64,000 nt of DNA from Candidatus Methanofastidiosum methylothiophilum (GTDB lineage Archaea; Methanobacteriota_B; Thermococci; Methanofastidiosales; Methanofastidiosaceae): positions 47,864 to 111,863 of the forward strand of contig LNJC01000001.1 in assembly GCA_001587575.1 (NCBI GenBank). Reading direction: 5' to 3'. The notes below the pieces were generated by a model that saw only the letters and a list, made by a program, of their open reading frames with translations, did not search any database and had not been told where the DNA came from. Of this stretch, positions 5,926 through 45,512 are shown piece after piece. The translations under genes and the position numbers were made by a program. Positions within the stretch are counted from its first letter, which is position 1. Every line of letters begins with the position of its first letter.

Positions 5926-5994
5926 AACCCAATTCAATAGATTATTGTACCCTTCTAGAGAAATTAAAATAAAACCTATTAAAGGTGAAAATAT

Positions 5995-8373
5995 ATGAAA
6001 TTAAGAACAATTGGAGCAGTCCTCGCAGGGGCTGCAATGATTGGAGCTACTGTAGCAGGCGCTGCCGCTGCAGCAACAGTTCCAGGAAAAGCTTGGTTTA
6101 TTGACCCAGCAACGGGCACACCAAACGTAACAATAGTCGTTGGAGCACAAGCCAACGCATCCGATGTAGTTTCTGCATCTTTGATTGCAGCAGCAGTCGG
6201 TAACATGGCAACTGTCGAGCAGACAGCATCCGTACCAACAACTGCTTCAGCAACATGGGATAAGATTGGAGACTACAATTACACATATGTTCCAACTACA
6301 ACGACATACAATGCTACATGTGCAGACAGACCTGCTACATGGTACACAGACTATGGTCTACTATCTACTAGATACTGGGAAACATCTGAAGATGACTACC
6401 CCTCAGAGAATGCAGCAGCAGGCGGATACAGGACATACGTCCAGATTGCAACACCCTCAGAAATAAGGCATGGAACAGGCGGAGCCCAAGTCACAAAGGG
6501 ACTTAGCACCCTATGGTTCTCAAACTCAGCAAAAGACTGGGATGCAAATGACAGGATATACAAGCTTGCACCACAATCTGGAGCAGGCACAGGCTCATAC
6601 TGGCTTGTGAACAATGCAGTAACAGGATCACCAACTGCACTTATAACCAGAACTTTACCAAACTACGCTGGAGGAAGCTATGACGATGGAGACGGCCAGT
6701 GGGACCTTGACTACGCATTCTACACAACATTGGCATGGGTAAATGTAACTGACCCAGCCCCAAGACCTGCAGCACCAACAGTAGGCCAATACAGCAAAAC
6801 AGTCGACTGTGACTACGATTTCGGTGGAACAGGTACCGGAATGGAAGCACACGAAGAAATTCAGTTCATATTAACAAGCGATGACTGTGCAGGATGCGCA
6901 GCCACCGGATTACCCTTATTCAAGGGAGACAAGGGCGTCGTATCAGGTATAGTATACAGAACAACTGAAATCAGATACCCATTGTTAGAAAACGGCCAGA
7001 ACATCTGTGGAATCCAGAAGTGCTGGGGTATGGTTGACTTTGAAACTGCAAGAACAGGCAGATTCACACCAATCAAATTCCTCGGTAAGATGTACCAGCC
7101 AATGTTTGCAGGTGCAACATGGTATGAGACACCTGGATACCTTGGTGCATACTTCATGTACGGTAAGCCATACGCAGAGAAAGAAAAGATCATGAAGGTA
7201 GGGGACGTCTACAACTACCACGGATGGACTGTTACATTAAACGATGTAAACATATACGAAAACAAGGCATACATAACAGTTGCCGGTCCAACATTAACTG
7301 CACCATTTAACTTCATAATGGTCATGGACTCACTAGGCGACTGTGGACCATGCTGTCCAGACTGTGCAATATACGGTGGAAAGGGAGCTTTCACATCCAA
7401 CCCAACAAGAAGAAACGAATACGACCCATACGTTAACTACACAACTGTAACAAAGACAAAGGACGACTACGCATACAACTTCTTCAGATATGTAAACTTC
7501 ATGCTCGACGGTATCAAGACATTCGTCGGCGCAGACGGTACATACCTTGCAGAATTCAACTTGTACGCAATCGAAGACTTCGGATACTTAGAAGACAAGG
7601 GATGCTGTGACCCATTCGTCACAACACCAAACGACTACGGTCTTGCAATAACTGGTGGATGGAGAAAAGTTACAACAGTAATGGAAGAAACCACACCTCT
7701 TAAGAAAGCAGCAACTGTTGTTGGCCCATGGGAACTTAACGGTACAAGCGCTACTGATCCATTCGAGTACATCCAGTGGATGCCAGCCCCAGTATGCAAC
7801 GCATACTGCCCAGATGCAAACTTCGACACACTTGAATTAAGACTTTGCGACACAATAAAGGTACCAGACTGTGAAACATCATACACAGTCAACGGTCCAG
7901 AAAACTACTTCAAGATAGAATTACTTGACGTAGACTTTGGAACATACAACACCGACTTAACTATGTTCGATGAATACCTTACAAGAGAAGTATACGTAGG
8001 CAAATACACAAAGGCAGCACCAAATGACAAAGACGGTCTAAGAGCAAGACTCTCAATGACCACAGCAGGCCAGACAATAAAATACACAGCAAACGTCAAG
8101 ATCGACCCAGTTGAGCTCATAAAGCTTGACATAGAAGTCAACACTGCCACAAACAAGAAGAACTTAGTTCTTGTCGGCGGTCCAGTATACAACAGCATCG
8201 TAAAGGACTTAGTTGACATGGGAGCATCCACTGTCGACTGGGCAACATCCAGGGGAGAATGGGAATGGATAGCAGACCCAATGGCCAAAGGATACGATGT
8301 CTTAATAGTAGCTGGTGCCAACAGAGAAGAAACAAGAATGGCAGCAGAAGACTTAGTCAGAATGTTGAACTAA
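5995..8373 (+). CDS. S-layer (surface layer) protein, paralog A; secreted and cysteine-rich
   Basis: It has an N-terminal signal peptide (MKLRTIGAVLAGAAMIGATVAGAAAAA). This is followed by the motif VVGAQANASDVVSASLIAAAVGNMA, which resembles the Methanococcales S_layer_N domain. The C-terminus (NLVLVGGPVYNSIVKDLVDMGA...VLIVAGANREETRMAAEDLV) resembles S_layer_C. A strong RBS (AGGTGAAAA) precedes the start. Confidence 0.7.
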   Translation: MKLRTIGAVLAGAAMIGATVAGAAAAATVPGKAWFIDPATGTPNVTIVVGAQANASDVVSASLIAAAVGNMATVEQTASVPTTASATWDKIGDYNYTYVPTTTTYNATCADRPATWYTDYGLLSTRYWETSEDDYPSENAAAGGYRTYVQIATPSEIRHGTGGAQVTKGLSTLWFSNSAKDWDANDRIYKLAPQSGAGTGSYWLVNNAVTGSPTALITRTLPNYAGGSYDDGDGQWDLDYAFYTTLAWVNVTDPAPRPAAPTVGQYSKTVDCDYDFGGTGTGMEAHEEIQFILTSDDCAGCAATGLPLFKGDKGVVSGIVYRTTEIRYPLLENGQNICGIQKCWGMVDFETARTGRFTPIKFLGKMYQPMFAGATWYETPGYLGAYFMYGKPYAEKEKIMKVGDVYNYHGWTVTLNDVNIYENKAYITVAGPTLTAPFNFIMVMDSLGDCGPCCPDCAIYGGKGAFTSNPTRRNEYDPYVNYTTVTKTKDDYAYNFFRYVNFMLDGIKTFVGADGTYLAEFNLYAIEDFGYLEDKGCCDPFVTTPNDYGLAITGGWRKVTTVMEETTPLKKAATVVGPWELNGTSATDPFEYIQWMPAPVCNAYCPDANFDTLELRLCDTIKVPDCETSYTVNGPENYFKIELLDVDFGTYNTDLTMFDEYLTREVYVGKYTKAAPNDKDGLRARLSMTTAGQTIKYTANVKIDPVELIKLDIEVNTATNKKNLVLVGGPVYNSIVKDLVDMGASTVDWATSRGEWEWIADPMAKGYDVLIVAGANREETRMAAEDLVRMLN

Positions 8374-14505: not shown

Positions 14506-14715
14506 TTATAATATCTCCCATTTTTTTGGATAATATTTAATGCTAGTTCTAGCTCTAACTTCTCTACACCTATGTCCGTCCATGTCTTTAGTTGTAGTAG
14601 GACTAGAGATAACATCCGCCCTTAAATTTCCAGAATTTCCAAGAACATGTAATAAAATCCACTTCTCGTTCCTAAAATAGTGAACAGGGATTTTTACTTC
14701 TTTCACTTTATTCAA
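14506..14715 (-). CDS. Small hypothetical protein of 69 aa (TTG start), overlapping the upstream 98-aa gene; possibly the toxin-like partner of a two-gene module
   Basis: The ORF overlaps the stop of the 14708-15004 gene by 8 nt and has no recognisable motif. Confidence 0.3.
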   Translation of the reverse strand: MNKVKEVKIPVHYFRNEKWILLHVLGNSGNLRADVISSPTTTKDMDGHRCREVRARTSIKYYPKKWEIL

Positions 14716-15004
14716 TCTCTTTCACCATACCTTCTGTTTCTAGTTCTTCCATAATTTTACTAATTTGAATTAACGGTAAGTTAGATTTAGTATGTAAATC
14801 TATAACATCAATTTCTTTGATATCTTTAGACTTCAATGATTGAATTATGCCTTGAATAATTAATTTTGCCCCCTTGTCCTCTACTATTAGTTCAGAACTC
14901 TTTTTTAATTCTTCTAGTTCCTTTTCCAGTATCTCTATCCTTTGAAGAAGAGATTGTAAGGCTGTAGTTTCAAAATTATTTTTTTGAATTTCTACATAAG
15001 TCAT
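14708..15004 (-). CDS. Small coiled-coil protein with a possible C-terminal winged-helix (putative regulator or antitoxin-like)
   Basis: A 98-aa protein with an N-terminal coiled coil (LLQRIEILEKELEELKK) and a C-terminal segment LHTKSNLPLIQISKIMEELETEGMV that looks like an HTH. Confidence 0.4.
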   Translation of the reverse strand: MTYVEIQKNNFETTALQSLLQRIEILEKELEELKKSSELIVEDKGAKLIIQGIIQSLKSKDIKEIDVIDLHTKSNLPLIQISKIMEELETEGMVKEIE

Positions 15005-15112: not shown

Positions 15113-15745
15113 ATGGTGGCCTTGACCTTCTTCGTATATGCATTGACCTCTATATTCGTCATTGTAAATCCAGTAGGTGCAATGTTTACATTCATGTCAC
15201 TAACTGCCGATAAAGATAACAAGGAACGGATAAGGCTTGGCACAAGGTCTGTTTTAATTGGATGCTTACTTGCAGTAATATTTGCTATTAGCGGTGAAAT
15301 AATTTTAAGATTCTTTGGGGTCACTGTTGATAGCTTGAGAGTTGCAGGAGGAATTATTCTATTTAAAGTAGCATTGGACATGGTTTATGCAAAAACTTCA
15401 AGAGAAAGCTTTACTGAAGAAGAAAGAAAAGATGCTAAAGACAGAGATGATATATCAGTCTTTCCGGTGGCAATGCCCCTACTTACTGGGCCTGGAACGA
15501 TTACAACTGTAATTGTGGTAATAAGGTCAGTTCCTACAGTTGAGCTTAAGATGGTCGCAATACTTGCAATTCTTGTAACATTTGCAATCACATTCTTGAT
15601 GTTTAGGTTTTCAACTCCACTTAGTAAAATACTTGGTGTAACAGTGACTCTCGTATTTACCCGTATAATGGGATTACTACTTGGTGCAATAGCAATTAAC
15701 TTCCTTGCAACAGGGATTAAGAATATCTTTCTAGCAATGTTATAA
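15113..15745 (+). CDS. MarC family (UPF0056) integral membrane protein
   Basis: It has a six-TM pattern and the MarC-type N-terminus ALTSIFVIVNPVGAMFTF. Confidence 0.65.
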   Translation: MVALTFFVYALTSIFVIVNPVGAMFTFMSLTADKDNKERIRLGTRSVLIGCLLAVIFAISGEIILRFFGVTVDSLRVAGGIILFKVALDMVYAKTSRESFTEEERKDAKDRDDISVFPVAMPLLTGPGTITTVIVVIRSVPTVELKMVAILAILVTFAITFLMFRFSTPLSKILGVTVTLVFTRIMGLLLGAIAINFLATGIKNIFLAML

Positions 15746-15759
15746 AAAAAGAAAAACAG

Positions 15760-16075
15760 TTTGTCGCCTCACCTATGTTTTGTCTAGAGTATTATCCGAA
15801 TGTTTCGACGTCTCGAAACGGTCTCTCCAAGGTTTCAAGAGAAACATAAAAATGTTTCTTCCAAACTCCTCCAAACTTACGTTTGATTAAGGATTTCGAC
15901 CATACTCGGGAAACTTCCTTTCTCCAGATGCTACAATATATCCGTAATAAGAGTAAACTCCTTCTACGAACAATATCTCAGCGTCTGAAATCAGGAATAT
16001 ACTTCGACATTAACACAAGTGAAGTTTCGACCTGTGGTAATTATAGTAAAAATTTTATAACTACTTAAATTTTAC
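15760..16075. ncRNA. Candidate structured non-coding RNA or regulatory region; class and strand undetermined
   Basis: The 434-bp gap between the MarC gene and the next CDS has no credible ORF, yet its base composition is coding-like rather than that of an AT-rich spacer. It contains hairpins GTTTCGA-CGTC-TCGAAAC (15802-15819) and GAAACAT-AAAA-ATGTTTC (15841-15858). It also contains four copies of (T/C)TTCGAC. Confidence 0.3.
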
Positions 16076-16179
16076 TATTATTGATTATTTAGAATTAGAA
16101 AAAATATTTTTAAAATATGCCCTATCCTAAATCTGTAACGTTGACAGTATTTAATCATTAAGATAAAAAGTAACTATTT

Positions 16180-17085
16180 TTAGAAGTCTCTTATTAGATA
16201 CTCTGCAATACCGTAACCTTTCTTCCCATTCATTTCATATTCAGTTAGAGTTTCATGCATGATCGATTGTTTCTTTCCATCGCCGCTTGTAAATGGCAGC
16301 TTTACATTTTTTATTATCTTTGCCTTGACTTTGTGCACATCGCCTTTTTTGTCAAATAGCTCCATATCAAAAGAATTTGGGCTTCCATCTTGATTGTATT
16401 GGGTATTTATTGTAGCCTTGATTATTGGTAAGTTCTCTCCGCCCAAGTGGACAAAACCTGCATCAACTTCACCTTCAGAAACTGTAAGTTTTGTGACGTT
16501 TAGCGCCACCTCTTCAGAGAACTGGCATGTCAACCATATCCACATCTTTGGCGCATTCCAGTCTCTAACGCCCCACGAGTGGTCCCTTTCTCCCAATCCA
16601 GATATACTGTATTCTTTTTGACCTATCTTTAGTTTACCTACGGCTTTACCAAACTGCTCTAGGTGCTCAGAGGCAACCGATTGCGATATCTTTTCTTTAA
16701 ACCCACTTACACATTCTCTATAATCAAAGATTTTGTTAAGTGATTCAAATTCAAAGTTGAAAGAAACATCAACTGGCTTTTTACTGGAAAAATCAAATAA
16801 ATTTCCGTCAAATGTTAAATTCCATCTTTTCTCTGGCTCTATTTTATTAAAAGTCATGTTTTTTGCTGATAACAAGTCACCATCATATTTGTCGTCTTCT
16901 TTAAGGCCTATGTAAGAGCCATCAGGAAGCATAAAAAAACAGAACATATTTTTTAGAGGTTTATTAGGTTTAAGACCAATTCTCATAAAAGAGCATATGT
17001 CATTTGTCTTGTCATAGAAACTAAAGTAAAAACTCTCGTTCCATTCAACGTTATCCTTCTTTGGATGCACAACATCTGTATCCAT
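16180..17085 (-). CDS. Hypothetical beta-rich protein, possibly CrtC/AttH-like lipocalin-fold hydratase family; translationally coupled to the upstream phosphotransferase
   Basis: A 301-aa protein whose N-terminus (VHPKKDNVEWNESFYFSFYD) and internal motif (GERDHSWGVRDWN) recall the HP..EWWY and DH.W motifs of CrtC/AttH proteins. This is assigned from memory and is unverified. Its start codon overlaps the stop of the 876-aa gene by 1 nt. Confidence 0.5.
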   Translation of the reverse strand: MDTDVVHPKKDNVEWNESFYFSFYDKTNDICSFMRIGLKPNKPLKNMFCFFMLPDGSYIGLKEDDKYDGDLLSAKNMTFNKIEPEKRWNLTFDGNLFDFSSKKPVDVSFNFEFESLNKIFDYRECVSGFKEKISQSVASEHLEQFGKAVGKLKIGQKEYSISGLGERDHSWGVRDWNAPKMWIWLTCQFSEEVALNVTKLTVSEGEVDAGFVHLGGENLPIIKATINTQYNQDGSPNSFDMELFDKKGDVHKVKAKIIKNVKLPFTSGDGKKQSIMHETLTEYEMNGKKGYGIAEYLIRDF

Positions 17086-41723: not shown

Positions 41724-42584
41724 TTAATTTTTATTAAGCTCTCGGCCCATCTTTATGAGTTTTAAGACCCTGAAAACGTTTTCTTCAGACGGAGAAACTA
41801 TAAAGTCATCAGAAGCTTCAACACGGTCAAGCCCAAGTATGCCTATGGCCTTTCGTATCTCAGAAGCAGTTGGCGATTGGTCATTAGAGATTTTTGACCA
41901 GTAGCTCTCAAGATCAAATATATTCAAAATCTTTGCCTCAAGATCTTTATATCTTGCCTCGAGTTCAAAAATCTTGTCATCTTTAGCAGTAAGTTCTTTT
42001 TTAAGTTCAGAATTCTCAAGCTCTATTTCATTCTTTTCAACATTTAATCTGTCTATGTCTTCTTCAAGTTTGGTAATTAAATCCTTCTCTCCCTCAAACC
42101 CGTCTAGAGTCTCTTCAAAAGTTTTTATCTTTTTGTTTAAATCCTCGTTTTCATTTTTTAAAGAGGATAATTCTCCCTCAAGAGAGCGTATTAATTTTTC
42201 CTTTTGTATCACAGCGCCCATCGATTTAAGGGACTTTAAACCAATTCTGACAAGGCTATTTTTTATCTCTTTAGAAACTAAAAAAAGATCTGTATGCTCA
42301 AGGTCACGCCCTTTAGGAAATTTGACCCTTTCAAGTATAACTCCATTTCCTTTAAGTTCTTCAAAAAGTCTGTCGGAGAGTTCCCTACCGGGTCTATCTG
42401 CATCTGTTGCAATTAAAACAATATCCGCACCAACTATTGATTTTTTAGCAATCTCAACGTTGGTAGTAGGAATTATAGAAGAGATTGTAACTCCAAATTC
42501 AGAACCCAAGGCTAAATCTTGTATAGCCTTTGACAAGGTTTCAATATCTGAAACTCCTTCTACTATAATCCTTGTGTCAATCAT
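41724..42584 (-). CDS. Toprim-domain protein with a central coiled coil
   Basis: The N-terminal Toprim domain ([14 protein letters not shown]...[15 protein letters not shown]) is followed by a ~120-aa coiled coil. It is co-directional with L37e and overlaps its stop by 4 nt. Confidence 0.6.
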
Positions 42585-42745
42585 TTCCTCTTACACCAAT
42601 TGTAGCTTCTCATCTTTGCAGATTTACCAAAGCCACATGATGCGCAGACGCCATGAGAAGCATGATAAGAATGATTTCCACACCTTCTGCATCTCACATG
42701 TGTTTTATTGTTCCTCTTACCGTAGGAAGGTGTTCCTTTACTCAT
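42581..42745 (-). CDS. rpl37e: 50S ribosomal protein L37e, 54 aa, below the ORF-track size cutoff
   Basis: The reverse-strand translation [54 protein letters not shown] shows the C4 zinc ribbon typical of L37e. It lies between the Sm gene and the Toprim gene. Confidence 0.85.
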
Positions 42746-42746
42746 A

Positions 42747-42977
42747 TTAATCCTCCAAACTTGGTGAAATCAAAACAACGTTGTCTCCCCTTACAACTAC
42801 ATGTCCTAACTTTCTTACAGATTCTCCGTTCTGAAGCTCTTCAGCAGCCTCCATTACAAGATTCATATGAATGTCATAACCTTTAAGAGTTCCTCTGAAC
42901 TCTCTACCGCCTTTAAGCTCTACTAGGACATTGGAATCCAAAGCTCTGTGTATGATGTCGAGTGGTCTTTGAGCCAA
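42747..42977 (-). CDS. Sm-like archaeal protein SmAP1
   Basis: The motifs [25 protein letters not shown] and [13 protein letters not shown] match SmAP1. The gene is immediately upstream of L37e, which is the conserved archaeal arrangement. Confidence 0.8.
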
Positions 42978-45327: not shown

Positions 45328-45512
45328 TAAACCACACAAATAATGCCTTTGCTGTCTATTTTAAAGTTTCGGGTGAAACACTTTTTTATTAAGTATATTG
45401 TAAAACAATAATGACTAAAAAAACGAAATAAAAGCTAATTTGGGCTTCATTCAATTTCTAGCGCTGTATTATGCCATAAAACCTTTTAAATATAGGTAAT
45501 TAATTATTTTCA

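Follow-up and report, generated by a model that had tools for sequence, protein, structure and literature searches.

Organization of the locus

The window (the whole 64-kb stretch of DNA that was analyzed) contains a gap between a MarC-family gene on the plus strand (positions 15113-15745) and a DUF7065/DUF7064 gene on the minus strand (16180-17085). Between the end of the MarC gene at 15745 and position 16180, the only open reading frames (ORFs) comprise 33, 36, and 61 amino acids. The original prediction described this gap as an ORF-free island of coding-like composition, and our analysis agrees on both points: no frame is longer than 61 amino acids, the 61-aa frame on the plus strand is broken in homologous loci, and the GC content is 0.36-0.40 across positions 15750-16050. 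Across positions 16050-16180 the GC content is 0.19-0.23, and this AT-rich part of the gap is the promoter. The accompanying statement that almost all other spacers of the window are shorter than 150 bp is only roughly correct, in that nine other gaps of at least 150 nt appear on a crude map of ORFs. The GC-richer of these long gaps are occupied by small genes, one for L37e, one for an Sm-like protein, and one being a 69-aa ORF; the remainder are AT-rich.

A search with the MarC protein led to contigs of Methanofastidiosum and of metagenome-assembled genomes (MAGs) of Methanofastidiosia, in which MarC shares 79-93% amino-acid identity with the protein of the window. This assigns the window to an archaeon of the Methanofastidiosum lineage. 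By blastn the region was recovered in 8 of 12 genome loci. Use of the invariant 20-mer AGACCGTTTCGAGACGTCGA as a metagenome search key yielded nine additional loci, and contigs encoding MarC at 80-81% identity contributed two more divergent copies. The resulting set comprises 17 distinct sequences, namely that of the window and 16 others with 71-84% nucleotide identity to it.

Comparison of these sequences indicates that the gap almost certainly holds a stand-alone gene for a structured non-coding RNA, which lies on the minus strand, convergent with the MarC gene and on the same strand as the DUF7065/DUF7064 gene on the far side of the gap. The strand had been left unstated in the original prediction. 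A covariance model of the RNA (R1, described below) matches positions 15752-16037 of the minus strand with 285.5 bits (E = 3e-69), and the comparison between strands gives 285 bits for the minus strand versus 17 bits for the plus strand. Likewise, the minimum free energy (MFE) of the fold is -100.3 kcal/mol for the minus strand (z = -6.9) and -73.5 kcal/mol for the plus strand (z = -4.3). Most sequences carry G-U pairs at alignment columns 15/287, 23/280, 60/118, 145/252, and 180/223, which fix the minus strand as the transcribed one because they would be A-C mismatches in an RNA made from the opposite strand. The weaker fold, the G-U pairs, and the 17-bit model score together rule out a plus-strand RNA.

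The gene is preceded by an apparent archaeal promoter on the minus strand (16062-16076), in which a BRE-like AGTAAA is followed by the TATA-like element ATTTAAGTA. This arrangement, AGTAAA-(A/T)TTTAAGTA, precedes the first paired base by ~25-30 nt, and it resembles in kind and in distance the TATA elements of both tRNA genes present in the window. The surrounding block, ...AACAGTAAA(A/T)TTTAAGTAT..., is kept in all homologs, including L004 and L009, in which the upstream gene or the spacing differs. From the position of these elements we infer that transcription would start near 16040, ~25-30 nt downstream of the BRE/TATA elements, and would stop in a run of T residues at ~15750. The primary transcript is thereby predicted to span positions 15752-16040 of the minus strand (~285-290 nt), its 5′ end being placed by the distance from the TATA element and its 3′ end by the T-run.

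The putative terminator, UUUUUCUUUUUUU (15744-15756, minus strand), directly follows the structured part and its closing bulge-helix-bulge (BHB) motif, and it overlaps the MarC stop codon. Fifteen of the 17 sequences have a run of 5-7 T residues after the RNA, although in three of the homologs (L009, L022, and L025) it occurs 8 nt further downstream, and only UUU is left in L004 and L018 (UUCUAYUAAA). A similar T-run stands at the end of the window's tRNA-Ala gene. A scan for promoters and terminators of the bacterial type was uninformative because the host is an archaeon.

Secondary structure and covariation

Folding with RNAalifold, applied to 9 and then to 15 sequences, gave a consistent structure that was refined by hand. 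The covariance model R1 comprises 285 positions and 93 pairs, and all 17 sequences were realigned to it. With the caveat that an alignment fitted to the R1 structure biases the counts toward that structure, and that the 17 sequences are fairly close relatives, 95.1% of the cells (17 sequences, 93 pairs) are standard-paired, a share that drops to 37.6-47.5% once the 3′ partners are shifted along by 1-3 columns. Double-sided changes are seen at 29 pairs, versus 7-19 when the partners are slid and 12.0 ± 2.3 when they are shuffled, and these changes amount to 72 cells, versus 19.7 ± 3.8 in the shuffles. None of 500 shuffles reached the observed value on any of five measures. Covariation among relatives had been proposed as a check on the RNA, and the 29 compensatory pairs in the 17 sequences bear it out.

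The structure begins and ends in a long irregular closing stem formed between positions 16035-15999 and 15792-15756 of the minus strand. This stem encloses two domains. The first, H4 (15925-15987, minus strand; 63 nt), is an irregular, extended hairpin made up of three stacked helices and is the most variable domain of the RNA, with 9 of its 22 pairs changed on both sides, as exemplified by the UA, CG, and GC pairs at columns 78/100. The second is a conserved 3′ domain of 116 nt (15795-15910, minus strand) composed of helices H5 through H10. Here, H5, H6 (GGUC/GACC), and H10 meet in a tight three-way junction that is closed by H5, and a GAAA/GA internal loop connects H6 to H7, which is followed by H8, capped by a GNRA-type loop (GUAA or GCAA), and by the long hairpin H9. 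Helices H5, H7, and H9 covary; columns 158/225, for instance, are CG in nine sequences and AU in eight, and columns 142/255 are UA in eight and CG in five. H6 and H10 are invariant.

Two hairpins had been noted in the DNA of the gap, GTTTCGA-CGTC-TCGAAAC at 15802-15819 and GAAACAT-AAAA-ATGTTTC at 15841-15858. Both were confirmed base by base at these coordinates, and both prove to be true helices of the minus-strand RNA. The first corresponds to H10 (GUUUCGA-GACG-UCGAAAC), which belongs to a block, AGACCGUUUCGAGACGUCGA, that is identical in all 17 sequences. The second forms the tip of H9, where the pairing of columns 191-199 with 206-214 is retained through changes among GU, AU, GC, CG, and UA pairs.

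Given its invariant junction and hairpin, its GNRA-type loop, and its A-rich bulges, the RNA may well fold into a specific three-dimensional shape and bind a protein. Inspection by eye for a K-turn, an 11-nt GNRA receptor, a sarcin-ricin loop, an H/ACA pocket with an ACA box, and a T-loop revealed none that fits the conserved positions.

A bulge-helix-bulge motif formed by the RNA termini

The ends of the RNA pair with each other to form a canonical hBHBh′ structure, in which ACAG-GUCG-AAA-CUUCAC is matched with GUGAGG-CGAC-AAA-CUGU. The 5′ strand of the motif (16019-16035, minus strand) consists of h (ACAG, 16035-16032), the central helix H (GUCG, 16031-16028), a bulge (AAA, 16027-16025), and h′ (CUUCAC, 16024-16019). 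The 3′ strand (15756-15772, minus strand) consists of h′ (GUGAGG, 15772-15767), H (CGAC, 15766-15763), a bulge (AAA, 15762-15760), and h (CUGU, 15759-15756). Published substrates of the tRNA splicing endonuclease EndA contain a 4-bp helix, two 3-nt bulges, and flanking helices (PMC7714728, PMC4731332, PMC4090602), and the strand order in pre-tRNAs is h-H-bulge-h′, with anticodon nucleotides 34-35 located in the central helix (PMC4090602). Each of these elements is present here, and in the same strand order. The central helix GUCG/CGAC is exactly 4 bp in all 17 sequences, the two AAA bulges reside on opposite strands, each 3′ of its own H strand and of constant length in 17 of 17, and both flanking helices are formed (h with 4-6 bp, h′ with 6 bp).

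Whereas other loops of the RNA differ in length among homologs, the BHB geometry is preserved without any indel in all 17 sequences. Covariation is evident in h′, which occurs as CUUCAC/GUGAGG, CUUCGC/GCGAGG, and CUUUGC/GCAAAG, and also in h; the sequence of H and the bulges is invariant, which places the pairing of H beyond proof by covariation. The isolated BHB duplex folds into the predicted h-H-bulge-h′ arrangement at -12.4 kcal/mol, and the motif also appears in the MFE fold of the full-length single sequence. For comparison, the cut-off for BHB motifs used by Schwarz et al. is -9 kcal/mol (PMC7714728). Loosely defined BHB-shaped pairings (4+4+6 bp, spanning up to 3500 nt) are common by chance, with 36 in the window compared with 21.7 in shuffled sequences, and the assignment of this motif therefore depends on its position exactly at the RNA termini and on its invariance.

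These features are consistent with a maturation pathway in which the first 17 and the last 17 structured nucleotides of the transcript would pair to form the hBHBh′ motif and EndA would cut after the second nucleotide of each bulge, at the predicted sites 16026/16025 and 15761/15760 of the minus strand. An RtcB-type ligase would then close the internal piece into a circle of ~265 nt that should resist exonucleases, and the tiny leader and trailer would be lost. On the basis of the BHB geometry and the known cleavage site, the excised and probably circular RNA is predicted to span positions 15761-16025 of the minus strand (265 nt), with lengths of 258-271 nt in the homologs. Ligation would join 15761 to 16025 at the predicted junction ...GGCGACAA|ACUUCAC..., and would cap helix h′ with the 7-nt loop CGACAAA. 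The mature RNA would thus be composed of the long irregular stem, the variable hairpin H4, and the strongly conserved multi-helix domain. Given a true gene, processing by EndA and RtcB appears probable from the geometry of the motif, and for the reading as a whole, in which a stand-alone gene yields a transcript from which cuts at the two bulges and subsequent ligation generate a ~265-nt circular structured RNA, we estimate a probability of roughly 0.65.

The alternative that fares best is a stable sRNA that stays linear, in which the terminal stem with its staggered AAA bulges serves as an element for protein binding or tertiary contacts, EndA makes no cut, and the likeness to a BHB is coincidental. 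The evidence for the gene, its structure, and its conservation fits this explanation equally well, and BHB-shaped patterns are, as noted above, appreciably frequent by chance under a loose definition. Moreover, EndA reads structure and has no need for the invariant sequence of H and the bulges, which could equally be a protein-binding site on a linear RNA. A coincidence of this kind would nevertheless have produced all of the strict features of an hBHBh′ motif (4 bp, 3+3 nt, the right polarity, and a flanking helix on each side), precisely at the two RNA ends and with a constant length in 17 of 17 sequences while other loops vary. In addition, EndA is found in every archaeon and would, by established knowledge, cut any exposed motif of this type (PMC7714728). 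We consequently consider a linear product unlikely, although it deserves to be taken seriously.

Comparison with RNAs released by BHB processing

We propose that the excised RNA is circularized in the way known for tRNA introns, pre-rRNAs, and the SRP RNA of Thermoproteus. That SRP RNA, which is permuted, provides a close parallel (Plagens et al., 2015, eLife; PMC4731332): it too comes from an ncRNA gene of ~300 nt that stands alone under a TATA promoter of its own, and its short leader and trailer form a BHB from which the tRNA splicing endonuclease frees the RNA, followed by formation of a circle, as is predicted here. The Thermoproteus RNA, however, is a recognizable SRP RNA that has a helix-8 SRP54 motif as well as GNAR loops, whereas the RNA described here is without SRP features; furthermore, Thermoproteus is a crenarchaeon whose endonuclease has relaxed specificity, whereas the present RNA derives from a euryarchaeon and carries a strictly canonical BHB.

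In the precursors of 16S and 23S rRNA, the 5′ and 3′ flanks likewise pair into an hBHBh′ structure, and the enclosed RNA is excised and circularized (PMC7714728), as we predict for the RNA of this locus. The rRNAs differ in being universal, 1.5-3 kb in length, and encoded in an operon, whereas the present RNA is a 265-nt orphan with its own promoter and without an Rfam rRNA match. The intron of tRNA-Trp that contains a C/D-box sRNA provides a third precedent, in which the functional RNA is itself the BHB-excised and circularized "intron" (PMC4090602, PMC12558985), an outcome that is predicted in our case. There, the exons make a tRNA, whereas the corresponding "exons" of the present gene are only ~15 and ~10 nt long and no tRNA was found; the RNA of this locus also lacks a C box and is four times longer.

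Distribution and genomic context

The covariance model finds one copy of the RNA per locus, with no paralogs elsewhere in the window or in any homologous locus. The range known so far encompasses Methanofastidiosum and close relatives in which MarC is at least 80% identical, and the RNA is absent beside MarC homologs of 65-67% identity from other archaea (L026-L031). So narrow a range makes co-occurrence with other genes uninformative. Methanofastidiosum is an uncultured lineage of methyl-reducing methanogens that is common in anaerobic digesters, and metagenomes of digesters and sediments (Ga0209096, ERZ795032, and SRR32456880, for example) are the source of the loci compared here. A viral origin is not indicated, as the invariant 20-mer has no matches in viral contigs and blastn detected nothing in phage and plasmid collections.

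At every locus the RNA is convergent with MarC and abuts its 3′ end, including L004, L018, and L022, where the neighboring gene on the opposite side varies. This constancy, together with the finding that the plus strand after MarC continues for ~30 nt without a T-run, raises the question of whether the RNA might act in cis as an antisense regulator of MarC by way of read-through transcripts, a function that would fit either route of maturation. Shared gene order carries little weight between relatives this close, however, and the compensatory changes show selection on intramolecular structure, which an antisense regulator would not need. The MarC homologs of other archaea, moreover, do without the RNA. 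We therefore judge this type of regulation to be improbable. For a gene whose product is predicted to be a circular structured RNA, our best guess is that the RNA acts in trans, as a lineage-specific ribonucleoprotein or scaffold RNA.

Comparison with known RNA families

The original prediction proposed an unclassified structured ncRNA with neither a tRNA cloverleaf nor the conserved boxes of RNase P or SRP RNA, and suggested an Rfam scan. No family was matched in the gap: at the gathering score, Rfam 15 identifies two tRNAs only in the whole window, and at E ≤ 10 it yields nothing for positions 15600-16300; a scan of 13 homologous loci was likewise without a match. ARAGORN and the Rfam tRNA model show only tRNA-Ala and tRNA-Ile, both elsewhere in the window; a tRNA or tmRNA in the gap is thereby rejected, and a split or permuted tRNA is unlikely. 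With its conservation and covariation, its own promoter and terminator, and the lack of an Rfam match or a conserved ORF, the RNA merits the description that it was originally given.

Other candidates were rejected on specific grounds. The C box RUGAUGA of C/D-box sRNAs occurs in none of the 17 sequences, and the CUGAxGA box of hammerhead ribozymes occurs in only 6 of 17, within a paired helix. A riboswitch or other cis-acting leader is excluded by the organization of the locus, in which the terminator of the RNA faces MarC's 3′ end and no downstream gene lies on the same strand. A coding gene or pseudogene is contradicted by the lack of any frame conserved in the homologs, and Pfam searches returned nothing at E ≤ 1. 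Archaeal SRP RNA (RF01857) and archaeal RNase P RNA (RF00373, RF02357) gave no model match. When the 17 sequences are doubled to represent circular molecules, the SRP helix-8 signature AGG...GNAR...AGCA is found in a single sequence, inside a stem, and CR-I and CR-V of RNase P RNA are found in none.

The SRP RNA of Thermoproteus, in its permuted form, and Pyrobaculum's type T RNase P RNA both reportedly escaped standard models at first, and so a highly divergent or circularly permuted version of one of these universal RNAs might be missed here as well. The length of ~265-290 nt, the stable-RNA-type promoter, the paired ends, and the BHB flanks are all reminiscent of the Thermoproteus SRP RNA (PMC4731332). 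Archaeal RNase P RNAs (types A, M, and T) are comparable in size, in being transcribed from an independent gene, in their paired termini, and in the order of a hairpin followed by a helix-enclosed core, such that the topology loosely recalls P1-P2, P3, and the core enclosed by P4. Against this, Rfam gives not even a partial match to SRP or RNase P RNA at E ≤ 10, the sequence signatures are missing as described above, and the GC content is merely 36-45%. The P4 helix of RNase P RNA is nearly invariant across all life, whereas H5, its would-be counterpart, covaries freely. A disguised SRP or RNase P RNA is thus very unlikely.

It is scarcely credible that the gap contains no RNA gene at all, but rather a small protein gene, the remains of a pseudogene, or clustered palindromes bound by protein at the DNA level (transcription-factor sites had been offered as an alternative in the original prediction). 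Palindromes, a repeated heptamer, and a 61-aa ORF on the plus strand do occur, but the compensatory and G-U-preserving substitutions reflect pairing in an RNA of one strand, stops and frameshifts interrupt the 61-aa frame in the homologs, Pfam has no match to it, and the indels are not multiples of three.

In the manner of its discovery the RNA resembles raiA, OLE, ROOL, and GOLLD, large bacterial and phage RNAs of unknown function. These similarly came to light as long stretches between genes that are richer in GC and devoid of ORFs, that covary extensively and have highly conserved junctions, and that have no regulated gene beside them. Those RNAs have no BHB, and there is no match between them and the present RNA in sequence or by model; the analogy is one of kind only.

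A candidate class of archaeal structured RNA

We found no description in the literature searched of an RNA at 15752-16040 or of any ncRNA of Methanofastidiosa. The RNA family is new, and the route proposed for its maturation, by way of a BHB and the tRNA-splicing enzymes, is already known. To our knowledge, release of circular RNAs from BHB motifs has so far been described only for the precursors of rRNA, for introns of tRNAs, and for the permuted Thermoproteus SRP RNA, and we know of no stand-alone BHB-flanked gene in Euryarchaeota for an RNA other than rRNA, tRNA, or SRP RNA. We are aware of very few large archaeal RNAs that are structured and have no known function.

In its most extended form, our proposal is that these genes represent a new class of large archaeal structured RNA, in which a dedicated gene has a BHB-excised circle of ~265 nt as its sole product, and the three-way-junction domain is the core of a lineage-specific ribonucleoprotein or of a catalytic or ligand-binding RNA of these methyl-reducing methanogens. 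We hold the chances for and against this full proposal to be about even. If true, it would provide the first example of a stand-alone RNA other than rRNA, tRNA, and SRP RNA that is matured by the tRNA-splicing machinery. If the BHB prediction is correct, the pair of splicing endonuclease and ligase would gain a dedicated client, a gene that exists solely to produce a circular structured RNA. The RNA also constitutes a structured and conserved marker for an uncultured methanogen lineage, and the reach of these implications is limited by its narrow known range.

Repeated heptamers and palindromes

A palindrome of the form GTTTC-N4-GAAAC had been reported at 45366-45379 and likened to the hairpin at 15802. 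The palindrome is indeed present, and a strict search for this form returns 15832-15845 and 45366-45379; the 15802 hairpin has a spacer of N8 and falls outside it. The covariance model matches nothing related to the RNA at 45366 or elsewhere in the window, and a tie between the two sites is not supported.

The motif (T/C)TTCGAC had also been described as a four-fold repeat. All four copies occur at the reported positions (TTTCGAC at 15803, 15894, and 16025, and CTTCGAC at 16002), but they do not form a set of equivalent repeats, as they play different structural parts and two of them are altered in L022, the most divergent homolog. The copy at 16025 forms the central helix H and a bulge of the BHB motif, that at 15803 forms the 3′ strand of the invariant hairpin H10, and that at 15894 contributes to the junction helix H6 and an A-rich loop; the copy at 16002 is only partially conserved. 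The reverse complement of TTTCGAC, GTCGAAA, is found six times in the 64-kb window, and three of these occurrences fall within a single 230-nt stretch of the gap, which is above chance.

Genomic context of the RNA gene

Across the homologous loci used for comparison, the sole constant neighbor of the predicted structured RNA is the MarC gene. The DUF7065/DUF7064 gene (16180-17085, minus strand, in the window) precedes the RNA in most loci and is absent upstream of it in L004, L018, and L022, with a divergent gene taking its place in the last of these. The approximately 50 nt located 5′ of the TATA element of the RNA gene are likewise well conserved, reading TTTAAAA(T/A)TATTTTTCTTAATT.TAAATAATCAATAACAG (window positions 16077-16130; columns 30-75 of the aligned loci, A1), and this conservation holds in L004 too, despite the different upstream gene present there. 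The block could be bound by a transcription factor that controls the RNA gene.

One of the compared loci, L010 (JAKQFQ010000111.1), is a contig of 1.4 kb placed in a MAG that is labeled 'Bacillota bacterium'. The H+-pyrophosphatase and MarC proteins it encodes share 91-97% identity with the Methanofastidiosum proteins of the window; the likeliest explanation is that an archaeal contig was binned incorrectly. Beside the DUF7065 gene of another locus, L003 (Methanofastidiosum UBA9950), a PPDK_N/PEP-utilizer protein of 876 aa is matched at positions 5982-6394 only through residues 1-91 and approximately 831-876, a partial match that points to either a pseudogene or the loss of a large internal segment.

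Palindromes and pairing potential

The original prediction had pointed to a second palindrome of the GTTTC-N4-GAAAC type at 45366-45379, and a pattern search of the whole window recovers exactly two such sites, versus 0.11 expected. One, at 15832-15845, forms a portion of helix H9 of the RNA. The other, GTTTCGGGTGAAAC, is indeed present at 45366-45379, inside a 173-nt AT-rich spacer (45340-45512), although its supposed kinship with the RNA is not borne out: a search of this spacer with R1, the covariance model of the RNA, yields no match, and the palindrome is therefore probably an operator-type site unrelated to the RNA.

At 15915-15997 on the plus strand, opposite hairpin H4, the pairing TTCC-TTTC-TCC-AGATGC / GCGTCT-GAAA-TCA-GGAA has the shape of a bulge-helix-bulge motif, the substrate form of the archaeal splicing endonuclease EndA. 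The bases it relies on, GGAAGTTTCC, are peculiar to the window and lack conservation in the homologues, and the pairing is probably a chance by-product.

Small genes in the window

A 69-aa ORF that begins with TTG (14506-14715, minus strand) overlaps by 8 nt the stop of a 98-aa ORF (14708-15004), the protein product of which has no match in a Pfam search. DNA-level conservation of the 14506-14715 region is 76-81% in L003 and L005, and the two ORFs, flanked by the genes for the H+-pyrophosphatase and MarC, look like an unrecognized small gene pair. An apparent 505-nt gap elsewhere, which arises only if the ORF map is restricted to ORFs of at least 90 aa, is occupied by two short genes (42581-42977, minus strand). 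By eye, their products look like ribosomal protein L37e (a 54-aa zinc-ribbon protein) and an Sm-like protein of 76 aa.
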